NCBI GenBank assembly: GCA_030754595.1 | Contig: JASLZZ010000094.1 | Coordinates: 1-54,845, forward strand | Length of the DNA: 54,845 nt | Direction: 5' to 3' | Source: Nitrospinota bacterium | GTDB lineage: Bacteria > UBA8248 | In this document: positions 555 to 7,366 of the stretch, piece after piece | How the letters are laid out: each line of letters opens with the position of its first letter | How positions within the stretch are numbered: the stretch's first letter is position 1 | Notes under the pieces: model-generated | Database searches by the model: none | What the model saw: the letters and a program-made list of their open reading frames with translations, nothing else | What the model was told of the DNA's origin: nothing | Made by a program: the position numbers and the translations under genes

Positions 555-791
555 GGTGACGCTCCTTCAGGCAAAAGATGGTAACTGTGCAGGTACGACG
601 ATTCTTTGGTTTTGAATTGCCGTCTTAAAAAACAATGTCTTTGATTGTGGAATTTTATCATACCCTCCGAAGTCAGGCCTGTGCATGGCGAATTACTAAT
701 CCACCACCAAAGGATCCGAAAACGCGCCAGCGGGGGCGGAGTAGGTCGGTGCGGGTGTGTTGTGCAGAGCCCTATCGACCCCATCAAATTT

Positions 792-813
792 GGTGTCCAT
801 ATGGGTGTCCATA
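792..813. repeat. Tandem direct repeat GGTGTCCATA x2 (12-bp period)
   Basis: Copies at 792-801 and 804-813. Confidence 0.7.
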
Positions 814-1031
814 ACCGGTGTGTATCAGTACCAACCGATGTTATTCAGGCTCACCTCGATTTATATACAACTCTTTGAGATTTATAGCTCAGGTTCACTT
901 GATGCCACTCCCTGTCACTCAGTCCAAAAACCCTGGAAATGCCCTCATCATGCAGAAGGCTTACCGGAAGCTGAACGGTAGCTGAGCCCGACCGGCTCCG
1001 GTTGATCGGCCCTGACAGGCGAAATCGCAGG

Positions 1032-1063
1032 TTGATTCCGTACTATAGTACGGGGTATAGAAT
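1032..1063 (+). promoter_or_regulatory. MerR-type promoter/operator 1
   Basis: TTGATT(1032)-CCGTAC TATA GTACGG-GGTA-TAGAAT(1058): perfect dyad inside a 20-bp spacer, matching the CCGTAC-N4-GTACGG mer operator. Confidence 0.9.
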
Positions 1064-1114
1064 TTCTAATCACCTGCGACCACCAGTGTTTTGCGTAAAA
1101 AGGGGAGAGGGACG

Positions 1115-1609
1115 ATGGTGGAAAAAAAAGAGATTCGGCTCGCCGAAATTTTCAAGATGTTGTTGGTGAAAACGGGGGTTAGCCTCTGATGCGCGCCGTC
1201 TCTGGTCCCGGGTCTCGGGGCCGCTATCATCGGCGCGCTGGGTAGCCTGACGGTTTACCGGCCCTATTTCGTTGCATTTGCAATCGTCGCTCTTGTGTGG
1301 ACGTTCTTTCGCCATTACGGGTGGTGTATATCAAGGTCTTGGGGAGAAGGTTTCTCGGCGATTTTCGTTTGCCTCCGTCCCTCGAGCGAACGGGACGCCG
1401 GGCTCTACATCGGTTCGCTCCTCGTCCTTGCTGTGATTATCGCGCCGCCTTGGAGCGTGACCCAGTATTTCAAACCCGCGAACCCTTGCGCGGTATCCTA
1501 TCCTCGGCAGAGGGTCGTCCCTGCTGCGGAATCTCCGCGTCCCATAATTCAACAGATTTCGGAATCCAGTAATCCCTGCGATTCCGGGAATCAGCACTCG
1601 GTCCATTAA
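1115..1609 (+). CDS. MerT-like membrane protein, predicted selenoprotein (U-C motif), 164 aa
   Basis: ATG 1115 after GGAGAGG; TGA 1187-1189 in SL-U-CAPSL; LTVYRPYF motif; same frame as ORF 1295-1609; hairpin 1204-1222. Confidence 0.75.
1204..1222 (+). promoter_or_regulatory. SECIS-like hairpin
   Basis: GGTCCCG-ggtct-CGGGGCC; loop starts 21 nt after UGA. Confidence 0.65.
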
Positions 1610-1654
1610 TCCCTAGGCCAGTTCGTAGCGATACCCTGGCTTTTCCGGTCCGGC

Positions 1655-1676
1655 TTGACTTCGTATATGGGCATGG
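1655..1676 (+). promoter_or_regulatory. Possible degenerate MerR operator
   Basis: TTGACT-TCGTAT ATGG GCATGG; two mismatches per half-site; -10 element unclear. Confidence 0.3.
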
Positions 1677-1732
1677 AGTGTGGGTTTAAATCCGGAGGAC
1701 GCCCTCCGGCCCGCGCCGCCGAGGTGAATATA

Positions 1733-2206
1733 ATGACGGATACCGAAGCGAAGAAAAGAATTGGTTGGATGGGTTCTATTTTTTCAGGAGCTGCCTCCAC
1801 TGCTTGATGAGTCCCGGCGCTGGCTCCGAGTCTCGGAGCCTCGATTTTTGGCGGCCTTGGCAGCTTAACGGCCTATCGCCCTTACTTCTTGATTTTTGCG
1901 GCCGCTTCGCTGGCGTGGATGTTTTTTCGCCACTTTAAGAACCGCGTCTCCATCGCATGGACACGGGGCGCGGCTGCGGTACTTGCCGAGTTTAAGCCAC
2001 GAAGCGGCACGGACTACCGCCTTTACCTGGGAGCGGCAGCGGTGATCCTCTTGATGGCCTTTCCGCAATGGGGACGGCCTCTTCTTGCGAAGCCTAACAA
2101 CCCCTGCGCGGCGGCGAATCCTTGCGCTACGACAAATCCTTGCGCAGCGGTAAACCCCTGCGCGGCGGCGAATCCCTGCGGTGCCAAGCCCCCAAGCCGA
2201 AAGTAA
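1733..2206 (+). CDS. MerT-like membrane protein, predicted selenoprotein with tandem U-U and NPCxxx repeat tail, 157 aa
   Basis: ATG 1733 after GAGGTG; TGA TGA at 1805-1810 in AASTA-U-U-VPALAP; LTAYRPYF; same frame as ORF 1889-2206; hairpin 1822-1840. Confidence 0.78.
1822..1840 (+). promoter_or_regulatory. SECIS-like hairpin
   Basis: GGCTCCG-agtct-CGGAGCC perfect stem; loop 21 and 18 nt after the two UGAs. Confidence 0.7.
2099..2182 (+). repeat. 18-bp coding tandem repeat x5 (NPCAAA-like)
   Basis: Units start at 2099, 2117, 2135, 2153, 2171: NPCAAANPCATTNPCAAVNPCAAANPCG. Confidence 0.9.
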
Positions 2207-2268
2207 TTTTCTACACCCATCGAATGGTTTCAATTCGGGATGGCTGTTTGGCGCCTTGCGTGAGCGGC

Positions 2269-2300
2269 TTGACCCCGTACCTAGGTACAGGCTACAGGAT
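2269..2300 (+). promoter_or_regulatory. MerR-type promoter/operator 2
   Basis: TTGACC(2269)-CCGTAC CTAG GTACAG-GCTA-CAGGAT(2295); same geometry as site 1 with one dyad mismatch. Confidence 0.8.
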
Positions 2301-2352
2301 ACTCCCATCGCGGCGCGGCCGCCTATTGTTTCGCTGAAGACAGGAGAAAGAA

Positions 2353-2598
2353 ATGAACGAAGGCGTAAAAGAAGTCATCGTTTACTCGTCCACGACCTGA
2401 CCCCCATGCAAGGCCGTGAGAGAGTTTCTCTCACATCATGGTATTCCCTTCACGGAAAACCTCGTGGATCAAGATTCCCAGGCGCTCGAAGCGTTTAAAA
2501 AAACCGGCTCGCGCGGCACGCCTACAATTCTCGTCGGGGACGAGATGGTGATCGGTTTTGATCGCGGGCGGCTTGAGCAGCTTTTAGGAATCAAATAA
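2353..2598 (+). CDS. Glutaredoxin/NrdH-like selenoprotein (U-P-P-C), 81 aa
   Basis: ATG 2353 after AGGAG; VIVYSSTT-U-PPCKAVREFL...TPTILVGDEMVIGFD; TGA 2398-2400; hairpin GTGAGAGA-gtt-TCTCTCAC 2416-2434. Confidence 0.88.
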
Positions 2599-2612
2599 CG
2601 GGAGCCCGGAAA

Positions 2613-2909
2613 ATGGCAGCAAAGGAGCGGTGGCTTTTCTGTCCGGTATGAGGCCAGGCGATTCCCGTACCGGCCGGTACATCGTATGACGAATTGTTCG
2701 ATTGTCCCAACTGCGCGGGCATCATGCTTCGCCTCGGCGAAGAGAACGGAGAAGATGTCCTTCGCGCGGCGCAATTGATTTCTTGTCCTGGCTGCGGCGA
2801 GCGATTGCCCATCGATGATGATACGCCGCCGGGGACCCTCATCCGGCATGACGGGGCCGAGTTTGTCCTGACCAAGGAGTTCGGAGCTTTTGCGCTGGAG
2901 AGTTCGTGA
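2613..2909 (+). CDS. Small zinc-ribbon-like protein, predicted selenoprotein (C-P-V-U, CPNC, CPGC), 98 aa
   Basis: ATG 2613 after GGAG; TGA 2649-2651 completes a CxxC-type motif; same frame as ORF 2694-2909; hairpin GTACC-ggcc-GGTAC 2667-2680. Confidence 0.78.
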
Positions 2910-2949
2910 AGATCCCGGAGCGATAACGCTACGGGACAGGAGGCCGATC

Positions 2950-3357
2950 ATGGACGCGATGACGATTGGCATACTTGCCCGGAAGGCGGATGTGAACGTC
3001 GAGACCATCCGCTATTACGAGAGACGCGGCCTCATAGAGTGTCCCCGGGAGCGGCGGGGCGCATATCGCGTCTATCCCGTTGAAACCGCATCCCTTGTCC
3101 GAAGCATCAAACGGGCGCAATCGCTCGGATTTTCGCTCAAGGAAATCAAAGAGCTAATGTCGCTTCGCCTGGACGAGGAAGCGATGTGCGGCGACGTTTT
3201 GGCCCGGACGGAAAAAAAGATCGCCGAAATAGACGAGAAACTTCGTTCGCTTCGGGCGGTGAAAAAACAACTCGTCCGGCTCGCTTCCGCTTGCCGTGAG
3301 ACGGCGCCCGCCTCGGAGTGCCCGATTCTAGAGGCGTTCGAGGGAAAAGGCGTGTAA
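2950..3357 (+). CDS. merR: MerR family heavy-metal responsive regulator
   Basis: MTIGILARKADVNVETIRYYERRGL HTH; AQSLGFSLKEIKEL; three Cys (MCGD, SAC, ECPIL) spaced like the Hg(II)/divalent MerR ligand set. Confidence 0.88.
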   Translation: MDAMTIGILARKADVNVETIRYYERRGLIECPRERRGAYRVYPVETASLVRSIKRAQSLGFSLKEIKELMSLRLDEEAMCGDVLARTEKKIAEIDEKLRSLRAVKKQLVRLASACRETAPASECPILEAFEGKGV

Positions 3358-3455
3358 TGCCTCCCCCTCCCTCCCCCAGCGCGGGGAATGTTTTTCCTCC
3401 CCCAGCGTTAAAGAAAGGTCCGGGCAAGTGCTTTCTTGGTTGGGAGAAAAAACCG

Positions 3456-4136
3456 ATGAACCCCAAAAACAATGGAGTTTTCGCAGGAATTTTGGGCGTT
3501 TCGTGTTGCGTCGTCCCTCTGATTCTAGTCGCGGCGGGGCTGGGCGGGAGCCTGCTCACTGTTTTTTTGGTGAAATATAAAGTTTATTTGATGACCTTGG
3601 CCGTGGCGGCGTTGTCACCGGCCTAGGCGCAGTACCTGCGCGAGGCGAAGGAATGCGAGACGCAGTTTTGCGCGATTACGGGCGGAAAATACCGTAAGTG
3701 GATGCTCGGGGCGAATACGGCGATGGTCTTGTTTTTCCTGATTGTCACCTACACCCCGGCGGGCGCGCTCGTGGGTGTCGATTTTCAAAGCGATGAATTT
3801 CCTGGGGCCGTGTCGAGTCTTCGGAAAGAGGCTACAGCCGCCATCCCTCCACTTGACCCGCGGTTCACATCGGGCAGGCCGGTCCGGGAGAGAGTCGATA
3901 AGACGCGCTACGAGCGGCTGACCCTTCGTGTCGAGGGGATGAGCTGACCTTTCACCTGACCGCAACTGGTCGCAGGGGCCTTGGACAGGCTTCCCGGTGT
4001 GAGAGTAAAAAACGTCAGCTACGCCAAGGCGCAGGCTGAGGTGCTCTACGATCCCCAAAAGGCCACCGTCGCTCAGATGGCCGGGGCTCTCGCTAAATTT
4101 AAATACAAGGCCTATCCGCTGAAAGCATCGAATTAA
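3456..4136 (+). CDS. MerT-like transporter fused to an HMA (MerP-like) domain; two predicted Sec; interrupted by in-frame TAG (possible pseudogene)
   Basis: Single frame: VSCCVVPLIL...ALSPA-TAG(3624)-AQYLR...C..C...LRVEGMS-TGA(3945)-PFT-TGA(3957)-PQLVAGALDRLPGV...AEVLYDPQKATVAQM...TAA 4134-4136. Confidence 0.75.
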
Positions 4137-4149
4137 GGGACAAATTGAA

Positions 4150-4407
4150 ATGAACCGCGAACCCTTGGAGACGGGAGACCAGAGAGAGGACCCGCCGGCG
4201 AAAGGTTTCGCCGGGAAGGCGCTTCTGGCGGCGGCTTTTTTTACCTGCCCCTGCCACCTCCCGGTTTATTCCGTTCGCTTTGGAGGGACGGCGCTGGGCG
4301 CCTACCTTGCCGGGTACGTGTGGTTTTCCGCCGCCGTCCTTACGGTGGTGTTTCTCTTTTCCTTCCTCGCGGGGATGCGAATGATTAAAGCCGGGGAAGC
4401 AACCTAG
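4150..4407 (+). CDS. merE: MerE-like mercury transport protein
   Basis: FFTCPCHLP...GGTALGAYL motif and two TM segments. Confidence 0.75.
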   Translation: MNREPLETGDQREDPPAKGFAGKALLAAAFFTCPCHLPVYSVRFGGTALGAYLAGYVWFSAAVLTVVFLFSFLAGMRMIKAGEAT

Positions 4408-4489
4408 TTGCCTCCGCAAACAGTTGAATTTTTAATGTTTAACGCTTTAAGGTCGCTTCTTCCTCTTTACTTCCAAATCAACGCTTGGC

Positions 4490-4518
4490 TTGGCATCTCC
4501 TGGAGCCAGTGTTAAAAT
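4490..4518 (+). promoter_or_regulatory. Putative sigma70 promoter of trxB
   Basis: TTGGCA-17 bp-TAAAAT. Confidence 0.5.
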
Positions 4519-4598
4519 CGCCCCCGTTTTGCGCTTGAATGATGCCGGACCGCAATACTTCCATAGCCGTCGTCGACCCAGCCGAAGGAGTTTTTGCC

Positions 4599-5558
4599 GT
4601 GGCAGAGAGAGATTTTGAAATCATCATTGTGGGTGCGGGCCCGGCGGGTTTGACGGCAGGCCTTTACGTCTCGCGCTCGAAGATCAGTGTCATGTGTTTT
4701 GAAAAGCTCGCCCCGGGCGGCGAAATTCTCAATACCGAGCACGTTGAGGACTATCCGGGTTTCGAAATGATTGGCGGTCCGGAGCTCGCTCAGAAATTTA
4801 CCGATCATGCCGTTAAATTCGGCCTCAAAATCGAGATGGAGGAAGTCTCCGAAATCCGAAAAGACGGCGACGATTTTTTCGTCAAGACCGACATGGGCGA
4901 ATACCGCTGCGGCGCGGTGATTTATACGGCTGGCGGTTTTCCGCGAAAACTCGATATTCCAGGCGAGGAGAAATATGCCGGAAAGGGAGTGAGCTACTGT
5001 GCCTTATGCGACGGCGCTTTTTTCCAGGATGAAGTCATCACCGTCGTCGGCGGGGGGAACAGCGCGGTCGAAGAGGCCCAGTTCCTCACGAAGTACGGCT
5101 CGAAAGTCTATCTCGTTCACAGGCGCCAAGGGTTTCGGGCGCACCAAGTGGCCGTGGACAAGCTCACGGAAAACGAAAAGGTCGAATTCATTCTCAACCA
5201 TGTGGCCGAGGAAGTGATCGGAGACGACAAGGAGATGAAGGCGATTCGCCTGAAAAATGTCAAAACCGGCGAAACGCAGGATATTGAAGCCAACGGGCTT
5301 TTCGTCTTCGTCGGGTTTATCCCGAACACCGATATCATCAAGGAAGATGTGGAAAAAGACGAAAGCGGGTTCATCATTACCGATCAGAACATGGAGACAA
5401 ATATACCCGGCCTTTTTGTTGCCGGCGATTGCAGGAGCCAGTTAATCAGGCAGATTACGAACGCCTCCGGCGATGCGACAACGGCGGCCGTGGCGGCCGA
5501 AAAATACCTGGAAGCCCAGGAAGACGCCAAGAAAGAGTCCGCCCCCGCCGCTTCGTAA
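4599..5558 (+). CDS. trxB: Thioredoxin-disulfide reductase
   Basis: GAGPAGLTA, GVSYCALCDG, VGGGNSAVEEA, GLFVAGD; GTG start after GAAGGAG. Confidence 0.95.
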   Translation: MAERDFEIIIVGAGPAGLTAGLYVSRSKISVMCFEKLAPGGEILNTEHVEDYPGFEMIGGPELAQKFTDHAVKFGLKIEMEEVSEIRKDGDDFFVKTDMGEYRCGAVIYTAGGFPRKLDIPGEEKYAGKGVSYCALCDGAFFQDEVITVVGGGNSAVEEAQFLTKYGSKVYLVHRRQGFRAHQVAVDKLTENEKVEFILNHVAEEVIGDDKEMKAIRLKNVKTGETQDIEANGLFVFVGFIPNTDIIKEDVEKDESGFIITDQNMETNIPGLFVAGDCRSQLIRQITNASGDATTAAVAAEKYLEAQEDAKKESAPAAS

Positions 5559-5608: not shown

Positions 5609-6169
5609 ATGCAGCTTTCGACTGCTATCAGGCGGTTTTTTCTATATGATATTGTCCGGGGGTTGACGATTACGCTCCGTCATCTGGTCAAGAAACCGGT
5701 TACGCTTCAATACCCCGACGAGCGATGGGAGATGGCTGAGCGCTTTCGCGGTTTTCTGGGTTTGACGCGCGATTTCCAAACGGGCGAGGAGAACTGTATC
5801 GGCTGCCTGAATTGCGAGAAAGCCTGCCCGGTGGATTGCATCACTATTTCCACTGCGGGCAAGGGTCGCGAGATGTATGCCTGGGAATTTTATATAGACT
5901 ACATGAGGTGCATGTACTGCGGTTTGTGCGTGGAGTCGTGCCCGACCACCCCGAAATCCATCGTTCATACGAACCAGTACGAGACCACCGGTTACTTTCG
6001 TGACGATTTGGTCTTCGAGAAAGAGCGCCTCTATGATATTTGGGAGAAAGAGTCGAATTTTAACGGCCCCCGTCCCTGGGGAAAACTCTTCGGTCTCCGC
6101 AACATGGAAAACGAAAGGCGGCCGGTCGAGCCGGAGCCGGAGGCAGAAGCGGCCGCTCCCGCGGAATAG
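5609..6169 (+). CDS. nuoI: NADH-quinone oxidoreductase subunit I (2x 4Fe-4S)
   Basis: VTLQYPDE, RFRG, CIGCLNCEKACP, CMYCGLCVESCP. Confidence 0.9.
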   Translation: MQLSTAIRRFFLYDIVRGLTITLRHLVKKPVTLQYPDERWEMAERFRGFLGLTRDFQTGEENCIGCLNCEKACPVDCITISTAGKGREMYAWEFYIDYMRCMYCGLCVESCPTTPKSIVHTNQYETTGYFRDDLVFEKERLYDIWEKESNFNGPRPWGKLFGLRNMENERRPVEPEPEAEAAAPAE

Positions 6170-6193
6170 AACCTTTCTTATCGGCGGCATCCA

Positions 6194-7366
6194 TTGAGCT
6201 TTTTCACGTCAAATTTTGACGAAATCCGATCCGGAAAAATAACGGATGTCTACTTCGAGCGGGCCAAGCGAGTTCTCGAAGCCAAGAATATCCGCAAGCG
6301 TGCGCGCCTGGAGGTGATGGCCAAGTCTCTTCCGTCGGACTGGAGTGTTTTTGTCGGACTTGCGGAAATTCTCTCCCTCCTTGAAGACCTTCCTGTCAAC
6401 GTCCGCTCCGTTCCCGAGGGGACGGTGTTTAGGCCCTTTCAACCGGTCATGGAAATCGAAGGCGTCTATAACGATTTCGGCTCATTAGAGACGGCAATCC
6501 TCGGCCTGATGTGCCAGTCGAGTGGCATCGCCACCAAGGCCGCCCGTTGCCGCATTGCTGCGGCAAATCTTCAGCTTGTCAGCTTCGGGGCCCGGCGGAT
6601 GCATCCGTCCATCGCCCCGATGATCGACAGGGCGGCTTATATCGGCGGATGCGACGGAGTGGCCCTCACCAGCGGGGCGGAGATGCTGGGACTCCCGGCT
6701 ATTGGGACAATGCCTCATTCTCTCATTCTCATGATGGGGGGACTCGTCCCCGCGCTCAAGGCGTTTGACGAGACAATCGAGGACGGCGTTCGACGTGTGG
6801 CTCTGGTTGACACATTCGGTGACGAGAAGTTCGAGGCCCTCAATGCCGCCAAGGCCATCACGGTTCGCCTCTACGCCGTCCGCCTGGACACCCCCGGCTC
6901 GAGACGCGGGGATTTCGAACAGATACTCCGGGAGGTCCGATGGGAACTCGACCGGGCGGGTTACCGGCACGTCAAACTTTTCGTGAGTGGCGGTCTCGAC
7001 GAGGATAAAATAATTGCCCTGGGTGATTCGGTGGACGGCGGCTTCGGTGTCGGAACGGCGATTAGCGCCGCCGCTACCATCGACTATTCGATGGATATCG
7101 TTGAGATCGAAGGCGAAGCGATCGCCAAGCGCGGAAAGGCATCCGGCGCGAAACACTTTCTCAGGTGCCGCGACTGCGGCTGGGAGAGCGTCATTCCCAT
7201 TGACAGGCCTTACGGCGATTGCGAGGAGTGCGGCGGGGTGATGGAGCAGATGCTCGCACTGGTGATGGAGGAAGGGAAAATCCTCGCGCCCTTGACCGAG
7301 CCCGAAAAAATCCGTGACTTAGTTCTACGTCAACTTCCCAGCCTTCGGCTGTCAGGACCCGAATGA
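6194..7366 (+). CDS. pncB: Nicotinate phosphoribosyltransferase
   Basis: TDVYF, FGARRMHP, GTMPHS, VRLDTPGSRRG, SGGLDE; C-terminal CxxC..CxxC. Confidence 0.88.
   Translation: MSFFTSNFDEIRSGKITDVYFERAKRVLEAKNIRKRARLEVMAKSLPSDWSVFVGLAEILSLLEDLPVNVRSVPEGTVFRPFQPVMEIEGVYNDFGSLETAILGLMCQSSGIATKAARCRIAAANLQLVSFGARRMHPSIAPMIDRAAYIGGCDGVALTSGAEMLGLPAIGTMPHSLILMMGGLVPALKAFDETIEDGVRRVALVDTFGDEKFEALNAAKAITVRLYAVRLDTPGSRRGDFEQILREVRWELDRAGYRHVKLFVSGGLDEDKIIALGDSVDGGFGVGTAISAAATIDYSMDIVEIEGEAIAKRGKASGAKHFLRCRDCGWESVIPIDRPYGDCEECGGVMEQMLALVMEEGKILAPLTEPEKIRDLVLRQLPSLRLSGPE

Follow-up and report, generated by a model that had tools for sequence, protein, structure and literature searches.

The locus described here raises the question of whether the TGA codons that interrupt a group of mer-like genes are read as selenocysteine (Sec, U) and, if they are, which metal the encoded proteins would handle. 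It is located in contig JASLZZ010000094.1 of a Nitrospinota bacterium (assembly GCA_030754595.1), and the whole analyzed stretch of 54,845 nucleotides is hereafter called the window. An earlier reading of the DNA letters (the sequence-only reading) described a MerR-regulated uptake and sequestration system for heavy metals, built largely of selenoproteins. When TGA was read through, eight co-directional genes were found in positions 700–5000, each with an ATG start codon preceded by a purine-rich ribosome-binding site, as had been claimed. They encode two MerT-like membrane proteins (g1 and g2), a glutaredoxin (g3), a LysW-like zinc ribbon (g4), a MerR-family regulator (merR), a fusion of a MerT and an HMA domain, a MerE-like protein (merE), and a thioredoxin reductase (trxB). 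All seven in-frame TGA codons reported earlier were present, at positions 1187, 1805, 1808, 2398, 2649, 3945, and 3957. The gene of the MerT-HMA fusion, which contains the last two, is broken by a TAG codon that the sequence-only reading missed. Because one of the five genes is disrupted, the locus has four intact selenoprotein genes with five Sec codons, and not five such genes as proposed.

On the basis of sequence comparison, the interpretation of the five UGAs in g1–g4 as conserved Sec codons is well supported. We consider it likely that the locus as a whole is a chromosomal mer-type system for a soft metal, most likely Hg(II), in which most of the ligand cysteines are encoded as Sec. The earlier statement that standard gene callers fragment the locus was borne out: under translation table 11, g1–g4 and the MerT-HMA fusion surfaced only as fragments (g1 as two frames of 32 and 104 amino acids), and database relatives of g2 and g4 were cut at the N-terminus.

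Selenocysteine Machinery and Decoding Signals

The genome (138 contigs, 3,548,052 bases, 60% G+C, 96.9% complete) contains one tRNA-Sec with the anticodon tca. The selB (364.5 bits), selA (551.8 bits), and selD (345 bits) genes all scored above the curated cut-offs, selD having a TGA codon of its own; the machinery on which the sequence-only reading depended is thus present. TGA is also the commonest stop codon and ends 1148 of the 2763 open frames of at least 300 codons, as well as g4 itself. Thus, the genetic code is standard.

In the comparisons, G000 denotes this genome, G001–G010 and G040 denote relatives, and L038, L050, and L053–L056 denote loci of relatives. Up to 11 genomes had the same TGAs in a syntenic locus, and conservation of the protein ran on both sides of every TGA. 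The aligned homologs had Cys or Sec at the corresponding columns throughout, with the exception of one Trp directly after a Sec and one Arg. Pairs of Cys and UGA at the same column were also found, since the first position of the MerT pair was Cys in G006 and G040, and the g4 position was Cys in 5 of 11 genomes. The claim that all TGAs occupy cysteine positions of metal or redox motifs therefore held in that each aligned with a Cys or Sec of homologs; however, the HMA loop had the form UxxxU and not CxxC.

Hairpins resembling the selenocysteine insertion sequence (SECIS) were found in g1, g2, and g3, where they begin about 10–15 nt past the (last) UGA and have G-containing loops. Those of g1 and g2, at a distance of 10–14 nt from the last UGA, follow the form GGYYCCG-GGUCU-CGGRGCC; the g1 hairpin has a stem of eight pairs and the loop GGUCU, and the g2 hairpin is GGCUCCGA-GUC-UCGGAGCC. 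For the MerT-like genes (13 aligned sequences), pairing held in 90 of 91 cells, and two pairs changed on both sides. The corresponding figure for the glutaredoxin hairpin was 76 of 77 cells, and one of its pairs occurred as A-U (six sequences) or as G-C (five) and was never mixed; its 5′ base change exchanges Arg and Lys, and its 3′ base change is synonymous (Leu). When the hairpins were slid as a control, 29–78% of the cells paired. Rfam gave no match at gathering scores in the window, and a single sub-threshold match in positions 1000–4500 was attributable to chance. The g2 hairpin (window 1822–1850) is followed by a T-run and scores as an intrinsic-terminator-like site; since the T-run is not conserved in G004 and G009, this score is probably incidental.

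Contigs from four metagenome runs of four studies spanned positions 1000–4450; the source sample may be included in three of the runs. The contigs showed 14 differences, none of them at the TGAs or the TAG. The closest one, 1185 T>C, replaces the Leu before the Sec of g1 with Pro, as in the relatives. The fraction of the sampled words present in two RNA runs was just 0.05.

A motif-plus-hairpin scan of G000 yielded 56 candidate open reading frames (ORFs), of which the 33 best-scoring ones off this contig (loci L061–L093) were taken to Pfam. In 16 of the 33, a Pfam domain extended across an in-frame TGA that belongs to a CxxU or UxxC motif; the domains were CMD/AhpD-like (9), UGSC (2), DSBA (2), AhpC/TSA (2, one with UxxU), and Rdx/SelW-like (1). 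The domain match of a glutaredoxin-DinB ORF (L078) also spans its TGA, and counting this ORF among the 16 requires that one CMD case be regarded as borderline. These additional TGA-spanning ORFs indicate that the genome is rich in selenoproteins, and the count is a lower bound because the motif-plus-hairpin filter misses g4. In Table 2 of BSepDB, the metagenome-assembled genome (MAG) behind L053 has 54 selenoprotein genes and is one of the ten bacteria richest in them. In two GrdB-like ORFs of G000, the TGA was located just outside the Pfam match.

Conservation of the Locus Among Relatives

The gene order was shared by G001, G003, G004, G006, and G010, and partial loci were found in G002 and G009. 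The synteny that the sequence-only reading suggested testing was observed in the five former genomes and in L050 and L053–L056, with the TGAs kept. A pattern scan based on the g4 alignment returned seven loci from 185,579 species genomes, all of them from MAGs labeled Nitrospinota, Nitrospinae, Nitrospinaceae, or “bacterium.” Two of the seven gave the same hit tables as known loci and were not recounted; the five others (L050 and L053–L056) carry the glutaredoxin-g4 pair. In the distant locus L054, this pair, with U in the glutaredoxin and C in g4, is followed by merE, merT (CC), a MerP-like gene with UxxU, and merF. The position among these genes ties the glutaredoxin-g4 pair to mer genes. 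Near-identical DNA was found in seawater metagenomes of at least 10 studies.

An insertion sequence (IS) element with transposase helix-turn-helix and rve integrase domains (L054:7901–9354) parts the mer-like genes of L054 from an oxidoreductase and merR. The former, a pyridine-nucleotide disulfide oxidoreductase, was ambiguous between glutathione reductase and MerA, was split over two frames, and was located beyond the IS element; it was not used as evidence.

MerT-Like Proteins With Selenocysteine in Helix 1

The g1 product is a three-helix membrane protein with the dipeptide UC in helix 1 and a C-terminal tail containing two NPC motifs. The g2 product has the adjacent Sec pair UU in helix 1 and a C-terminal tail with five NPC repeats. 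Both dipeptides aligned with the vicinal CC ligand pair of Cys-type MerT, MerF, and MerTP proteins, and the U columns were CC in the MerT-HMA fusion of the same locus and in MerT and MerF of L054. MerT carries a second Cys pair in a cytoplasmic loop. That pair was absent here: the loop of g2 has no Cys, and the loop of g1 has two Cys with another spacing.

Across the 13 MerT-like sequences, the helix-1 dipeptide was UU in six, UC in four, CU in two, and UW in one. The UC form was conserved in four members of the genus, UU occurred in six genomes, and CU was found in G006 and G040. A six-frame search of 61 genomes with g2 gave matches in 25, mostly to the C-terminal repeat alone; matches spanning the helix-1 dipeptide came from nine genomes, each with one or two TGAs at that place. 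Among database proteins, all eight true relatives of g2 were truncated “hypothetical proteins.”

NPC repeats (NPCAAK-like, 3–12 copies) are located at 2110–2190 of the window and were also observed elsewhere in G000 (C14:11815–12558, C14:12612–13328, and C41:264–728). They matched many proteins in relatives and other bacteria, for example, cytochrome c peroxidase-like and YHS-domain proteins. The three other NPC-repeat proteins of G000 have signal-peptide-like N-termini, which fits a periplasmic location of the g1 and g2 tails. The NPC repeat may thus be a lineage-wide periplasmic metal-binding module. One of the exported-looking proteins also has a CxxCH heme motif.

The Glutaredoxin and Zinc-Ribbon Pair

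The g3 product belongs to the glutaredoxin family (Pfam Glutaredoxin, PF00462, 54.1 bits against a cut-off of 22.9) and has the active site UPPC, whose first position was U in all 11 genomes. An invariant FLSHH was observed soon after the UxxC motif in 11 of 11 sequences (window 2425–2439, residues 25–29 of g3). The His pair, unusual among glutaredoxins, could be a further metal ligand.

The g4 product, of 98 amino acids, is a tandem of two LysW-like ribbons (CPVU…CPNC) and scored 33.2 bits with Pfam Zn_ribbon_LysW (PF21344, cut-off 27). In its AlphaFold model (pLDDT 86.4), the N-terminal half had the best fold match with LysW 3vpb_E (Foldseek probability 1.00, rmsd 1.3 over 46 columns). The score with NF041070 was 43.6 bits, below the cut-off of 75 for LysW/ArgW carriers. 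The acidic C-terminal tail of LysW carries the substrate; g4 ends in EFGAFALESS, without such a tail, and its likeness to LysW is confined to the ribbon fold. In the 11 genomes, the g4 column was U in six and C in five, and a second U was found in the second knuckle in two genomes. The 19 database relatives of g4 comprised seven full-length proteins with Cys, 10 N-terminally truncated ones, one with Arg, and one with a divergent N-terminus that could not be aligned. The g4 gene always adjoins the Sec-glutaredoxin gene, the stop codon of which overlaps the g4 start in five genomes.

Operators and the MerR Regulator

The two mer-type operators that had been proposed were found. The dyad of operator 1, CCGTACTATAGTACGG (1038–1053), is a perfect CCGTAC-N4-GTACGG in a spacer of 18 nt, and that of operator 2, CCGTACCTAGGTACAG (2275–2290), also lies inside an 18-nt spacer. 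Both fit CCGTAC-N4-GTAC(G/A)G, and the spacer becomes 19 nt if an alternative -10 hexamer is taken. In the whole genome, no other site gave an exact match to the -35 element plus dyad, and the reversed control gave no exact match. The bare dyad with two mismatches gave five matches against 3.25 expected, which is not above chance; therefore, only the exact sites carry weight. The operator arrangement was kept in front of the orthologs in G004, G009, L050, and, at two sites, G001; operator 1 was kept before the g1 ortholog of G001, and operator 2 before the glutaredoxin genes of G001, G004, and L050. A third operator-like stretch upstream of g2 (about 1656–1690), in which 4 of the 12 dyad positions differ on visual inspection, was not counted as an operator. 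The two-mismatch site C96:39064, beside a luciferase-like monooxygenase-type ORF, was taken as a chance match.

The presence of merR and merE, as claimed by the sequence-only reading, was confirmed by the profiles MerR_1 (66.5 bits) and Pfam MerE (39.4 bits against 22.8). The regulator has Cys80, Cys115, and Cys124, with a spacing of 35 and 9 residues that is of the Hg(II)-MerR type, as for Cys82, Cys117, and Cys126 in Tn501 MerR. The dyad CCGTAC-N4-GTACGG corresponds to the half-sites of the Tn501 merO. The conserved operators and the Hg-type spacing of the cysteines suggest that the locus is controlled by MerR.

The Disrupted MerT-HMA Fusion, merE, and trxB

The MerT half (3456–3623) and the HMA half (3627–4136) of the fusion are in one frame, with the TAG (3624–3626) between them. 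The MerT half has CC in helix 1, and the fusion matched the HMA (27.5 bits) and MerTP profiles. The position of the TAG is Trp in the G004 ortholog; in that copy, a single base is missing from a T-run at codon 37, and in the L050 copy, the frame shifts near residue 135. The TAG was also present in the metagenome contigs of the four runs from four studies; thus, the lesion is fixed in the sampled populations. The fusion had no match in G001, G003, G010, L053, L055, and L056; in G006 and L054, only an HMA protein, encoded separately, was found.

The HMA loop is UPFTU in the window, G004, and L050, UPFGU in the free-standing exported homolog of G006, and UGAU in L054. The loop in the window is thus U-x-x-x-U, one residue longer than in GMxCxxC. 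With NF041115, the HMA domain of the window scored 62–63 bits, below the cut-off of 95, which the HMA protein of L054 alone passed (99.2 bits). The fusion, with X at the TAG, scored 35.9 bits with NF045683 (cut-off 375).

The merE product scored 50.7 bits with NF010310, under the cut-off of 80. The trxB product scored 368.4 bits with TIGR01292 (cut-off 343.45); trxB is located downstream in 9 of 11 genomes and has its own sigma-70-like promoter at 4490–4518.

Proposed Function and Alternative Explanations

In the mechanism that we propose, metal-bound MerR would act on the two dyads in the over-long promoter spacers and switch on two transcription units, g1-g2 and grx-g4-merR-(merTP)-merE. The exported NPC tails of g1 and g2 would take over the part of MerP and catch the metal in the periplasm, and the metal would then pass through the helix-1 selenol pair to the cytosolic pair of Sec-glutaredoxin and zinc ribbon. 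As no MerA was found, the metal would probably be bound and buffered rather than reduced to Hg(0), with thioredoxin reductase keeping the selenols reduced. We infer a role in uptake and sequestration, which the lack of MerA makes sharper. A more far-reaching version, which we regard as possible but rather doubtful, is a selenium-based, reductase-independent Hg relay in marine bacteria of the Nitrospinota lineage, in which the NPC tails and the Sec-Sec pair would scavenge trace oceanic Hg(II) and hand it to the glutaredoxin/LysW-like pair, to end up protein-bound or as Hg-Se and not as Hg(0). If true, the relay would represent an unrecognized route of microbial Hg uptake and immobilization in the water column, and the locus would provide the first natural bacterial case of two adjacent Sec codons decoded via one SECIS.

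Several observations weigh against the interpretation as a mer-type Hg(II) locus with Sec ligands, some of them concerning the metal and some the codons. With regard to the metal, g1 and g2 scored 23.8 and 24.7 bits with Pfam MerT (PF02411), missing the cut-off of 32.9, and 22.3 and 17.6 bits with NF010314 (cut-off 150). The best family of the regulator was TIGR02051, at 128.2 bits and thus under the equivalog cut-off of 150.85, and merR was not found beside the glutaredoxin-g4 pair in G003 and L056. The fusion is disrupted in all three genomes that carry one, each time differently, and the linkage of trxB may just reflect relatedness because trxB has its own promoter. The best MerA score in G000 was 355.2 bits against a cut-off of 454.45 (the two best loci, which look lipoamide-dehydrogenase-like and lack the C-terminal Cys pair, were rejected), and none of the 25 family genomes (G000 and 24 others; 40 relatives were searched) exceeded the cut-off; Hg(II), once imported, would therefore not undergo the usual detoxification. 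The missing MerA and the MerT-like, MerTP, and MerR scores, all below equivalog cut-offs, would also suit a real selenoprotein operon that serves Cu(I), Ag(I), Au, Cd, or redox or selenium trafficking, the mer names then expressing family resemblance. The same is true of the 98–105 bits reached by the ZntR, CueR, and CadR profiles on the regulator (against 128 for MerR), of the matches of the HMA domain to CopZ profiles, and of the glutaredoxin, thioredoxin reductase, and CxxU motifs, which are described as typical of redox selenoproteins. However, MerR was the top-scoring family for the regulator, its three cysteines have the Hg(II)-MerR spacing, the dyad corresponds to the Tn501 merO half-sites, MerE is present, and in L054 the glutaredoxin-g4 pair sits among merT, merP, and merF; for these reasons, we consider another metal or role unlikely.

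With regard to the codons, a G009 paralog (L038 588–647) has the UW form, with a TGG, one base from TGA, right after the TGA. The g4 relative P0006 has Arg at the Cys/Sec column, likewise one base from TGA. The hairpins downstream of the g4 and HMA codons are weak or also occur in Cys forms, and that of g4 does not tell Sec from Cys forms. If the TGAs were plain stops, the genes would be either mer genes decayed by nonsense mutation of Cys codons or sets of short independent ORFs. Such a change from TGC or TGT requires a single base, the neighboring merTP is in fact decaying (TAG here and frameshifts in G004 and L050), and gene callers yield fragments only. Nevertheless, this explanation is very improbable in view of the TGAs kept in up to 11 genomes with the protein conserved on both sides, the conserved hairpins with compensatory changes after them, the complete Sec machinery, the Pfam domains running across the TGA in 16 of the 33 further candidates, and the unchanged codons in the metagenome contigs of four runs from four studies. 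Reassignment of TGA to Trp or Gly (codes 4 or 25), to which the paralog with TGG right after TGA might point, can practically be dismissed, as TGA closes 1148 of 2763 long frames as well as g4, the TGA columns align with Cys and not with Trp or Gly, and the genome encodes a tRNA-Sec with the anticodon tca.

Organization of the Locus and Flanking Regions

The features of the locus are listed in Table 1. Upstream, an open-ended ORF occupies positions 1–554 of the window on the minus strand, and downstream, a 4Fe-4S ferredoxin-like ORF and an ORF of 390 amino acids were found in positions 5609–7366; these ORFs were named by eye, and both flanks look unrelated to the locus.

Table 1. Positions of genes, promoters, and predicted hairpins of the mer-like locus in the window.
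Feature	Positions	Strand	Remarks
Promoter/operator 1	1032–1061	+	TTGATT-N18-TATAGA around dyad
g1, MerT-like, UC	1115–1609	+	Sec codon 1187–1189
g1 SECIS-like hairpin	1203–1223	+	13 nt past UGA
g2, MerT-like, UU	1733–2206	+	Sec codons 1805–1807, 1808–1810
g2 SECIS-like hairpin	1822–1840	+	serves both UGAs (predicted)
Promoter/operator 2	2269–2298	+	TTGACC-N18-TACAGG around dyad
g3, glutaredoxin, UPPC	2353–2598	+	Sec codon 2398–2400
g3 SECIS-like hairpin	2416–2434	+	GUGAGAG-AGUUU-CUCUCAC
g4, LysW-like zinc ribbon, CPVU	2613–2909	+	Sec codon 2649–2651; stop TGA 2907–2909
merR	2950–3357	+	MerR-family profile; Cys80, Cys115, Cys124
Disrupted MerT-HMA (MerTP-type) fusion	3456–4136	+	TAG 3624–3626; Sec codons 3945–3947, 3957–3959 (GMSUPFTU)
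merE-like small membrane protein	4150–4407	+	Pfam MerE; CPC motif; no Sec
trxB, thioredoxin reductase	4539–5558	+	TIGR01292; own promoter 4490–4518

Significance and Comparison With Known Systems

The locus is a natural setting in which to ask why selenolates have taken the place of thiolates as soft-metal ligands; its cases include a Sec-Sec pair within a membrane helix and a zinc ribbon with Sec at one of the ligand positions. MerR-switched uptake of Hg(II) without MerA, if that is its function, bears on the acquisition of mercury by marine microorganisms. Because all selenoprotein genes of the locus are overlooked or cut short by gene callers, the system would escape metagenomic surveys of mercury genes in the ocean. 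Relatives of the lineage have been discussed as possible mercury methylators; no HgcA-type domain (PF03599) was found in this genome, and a link to methylation was dropped for it.

The locus resembles the mer operons of Tn21 and Tn501 in several respects: its regulator belongs to the MerR family and has three Hg-spaced cysteines, its dyad lies in an over-long spacer, its MerT-like importers bear their ligand pair in helix 1, and both MerE and an HMA (MerP-like) domain are encoded. Unlike in these operons, MerA is lacking in the genome, ligand cysteines are replaced by Sec, and merR is co-directional and located inside the operon. A separate MerP is also missing, with Cys-rich NPC tails instead, a Sec-glutaredoxin and a LysW-like ribbon are added, and the locus lies on the chromosome, with vertical conservation within a single lineage.

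Single Sec-containing MerT proteins had been predicted before, as the sequence-only reading stated: a “putative mercuric transport protein” (PF02411) with one Sec is cataloged (PMC9312934; PMC13188914), and MerT-family selenoproteins with CU, few in number, are mentioned in a preprint (Haft, bioRxiv 10.1101/2022.07.06.499078). These share Sec at the helix-1 ligand site with the proteins studied here, and G006 and G040 have the same CU form; however, the catalog tables give one Sec, whereas the locus has the UC and UU forms in two paralogs with NPC tails. With the profile NF045683, the proteins of the locus scored only 22–36 bits (cut-off 375). The reviews also list a UxxU metal-binding protein (NF041115), Sec-glutaredoxins, and an FmdB-type zinc ribbon with UxxU. 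The NF041115 proteins, called “putative mercuric reductase” in the reviews, resemble the HMA domain of the fusion in the fold and in having Sec for both loop ligands, and L054 has a member; unlike them, the domain in the window has UxxxU (as in G004, L050, and G006), scores below the cut-off, is fused to MerT, and is disrupted.

The SAO system of Clostridioides difficile and other anaerobes is likewise a chromosomal multi-selenoprotein operon with mer-related parts and a thioredoxin-like UxxC protein, and it has been argued to handle a mercury-like metal (Haft, 2022). It differs in its ABC transporter, MerB-like lyase, and anaerobic Firmicutes hosts, and the accounts of SAO available to us describe no MerR/merO control. 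LysW and ArgW (3vpb_E and 3wwn_B) share the zinc-ribbon fold with the N-terminal half of g4; unlike them, g4 has tandem ribbons, Sec at a zinc-ligand position, a Sec-glutaredoxin as its neighbor, and no acidic tail.

In the literature searched, preprint supplements and curated database sites aside, we found no UU form, no LysW-like selenoprotein, and no multi-selenoprotein operon under MerR/merO control; in the papers checked for this point, tandem or adjacent Sec codons were not mentioned in such terms. Single-Sec MerT, HMA, and glutaredoxin proteins are thus known, and the Sec-Sec pair, the LysW-like selenoprotein, and the MerR-controlled set without MerA appear to be new to print. The locus therefore extends known biology and introduces no new principle.

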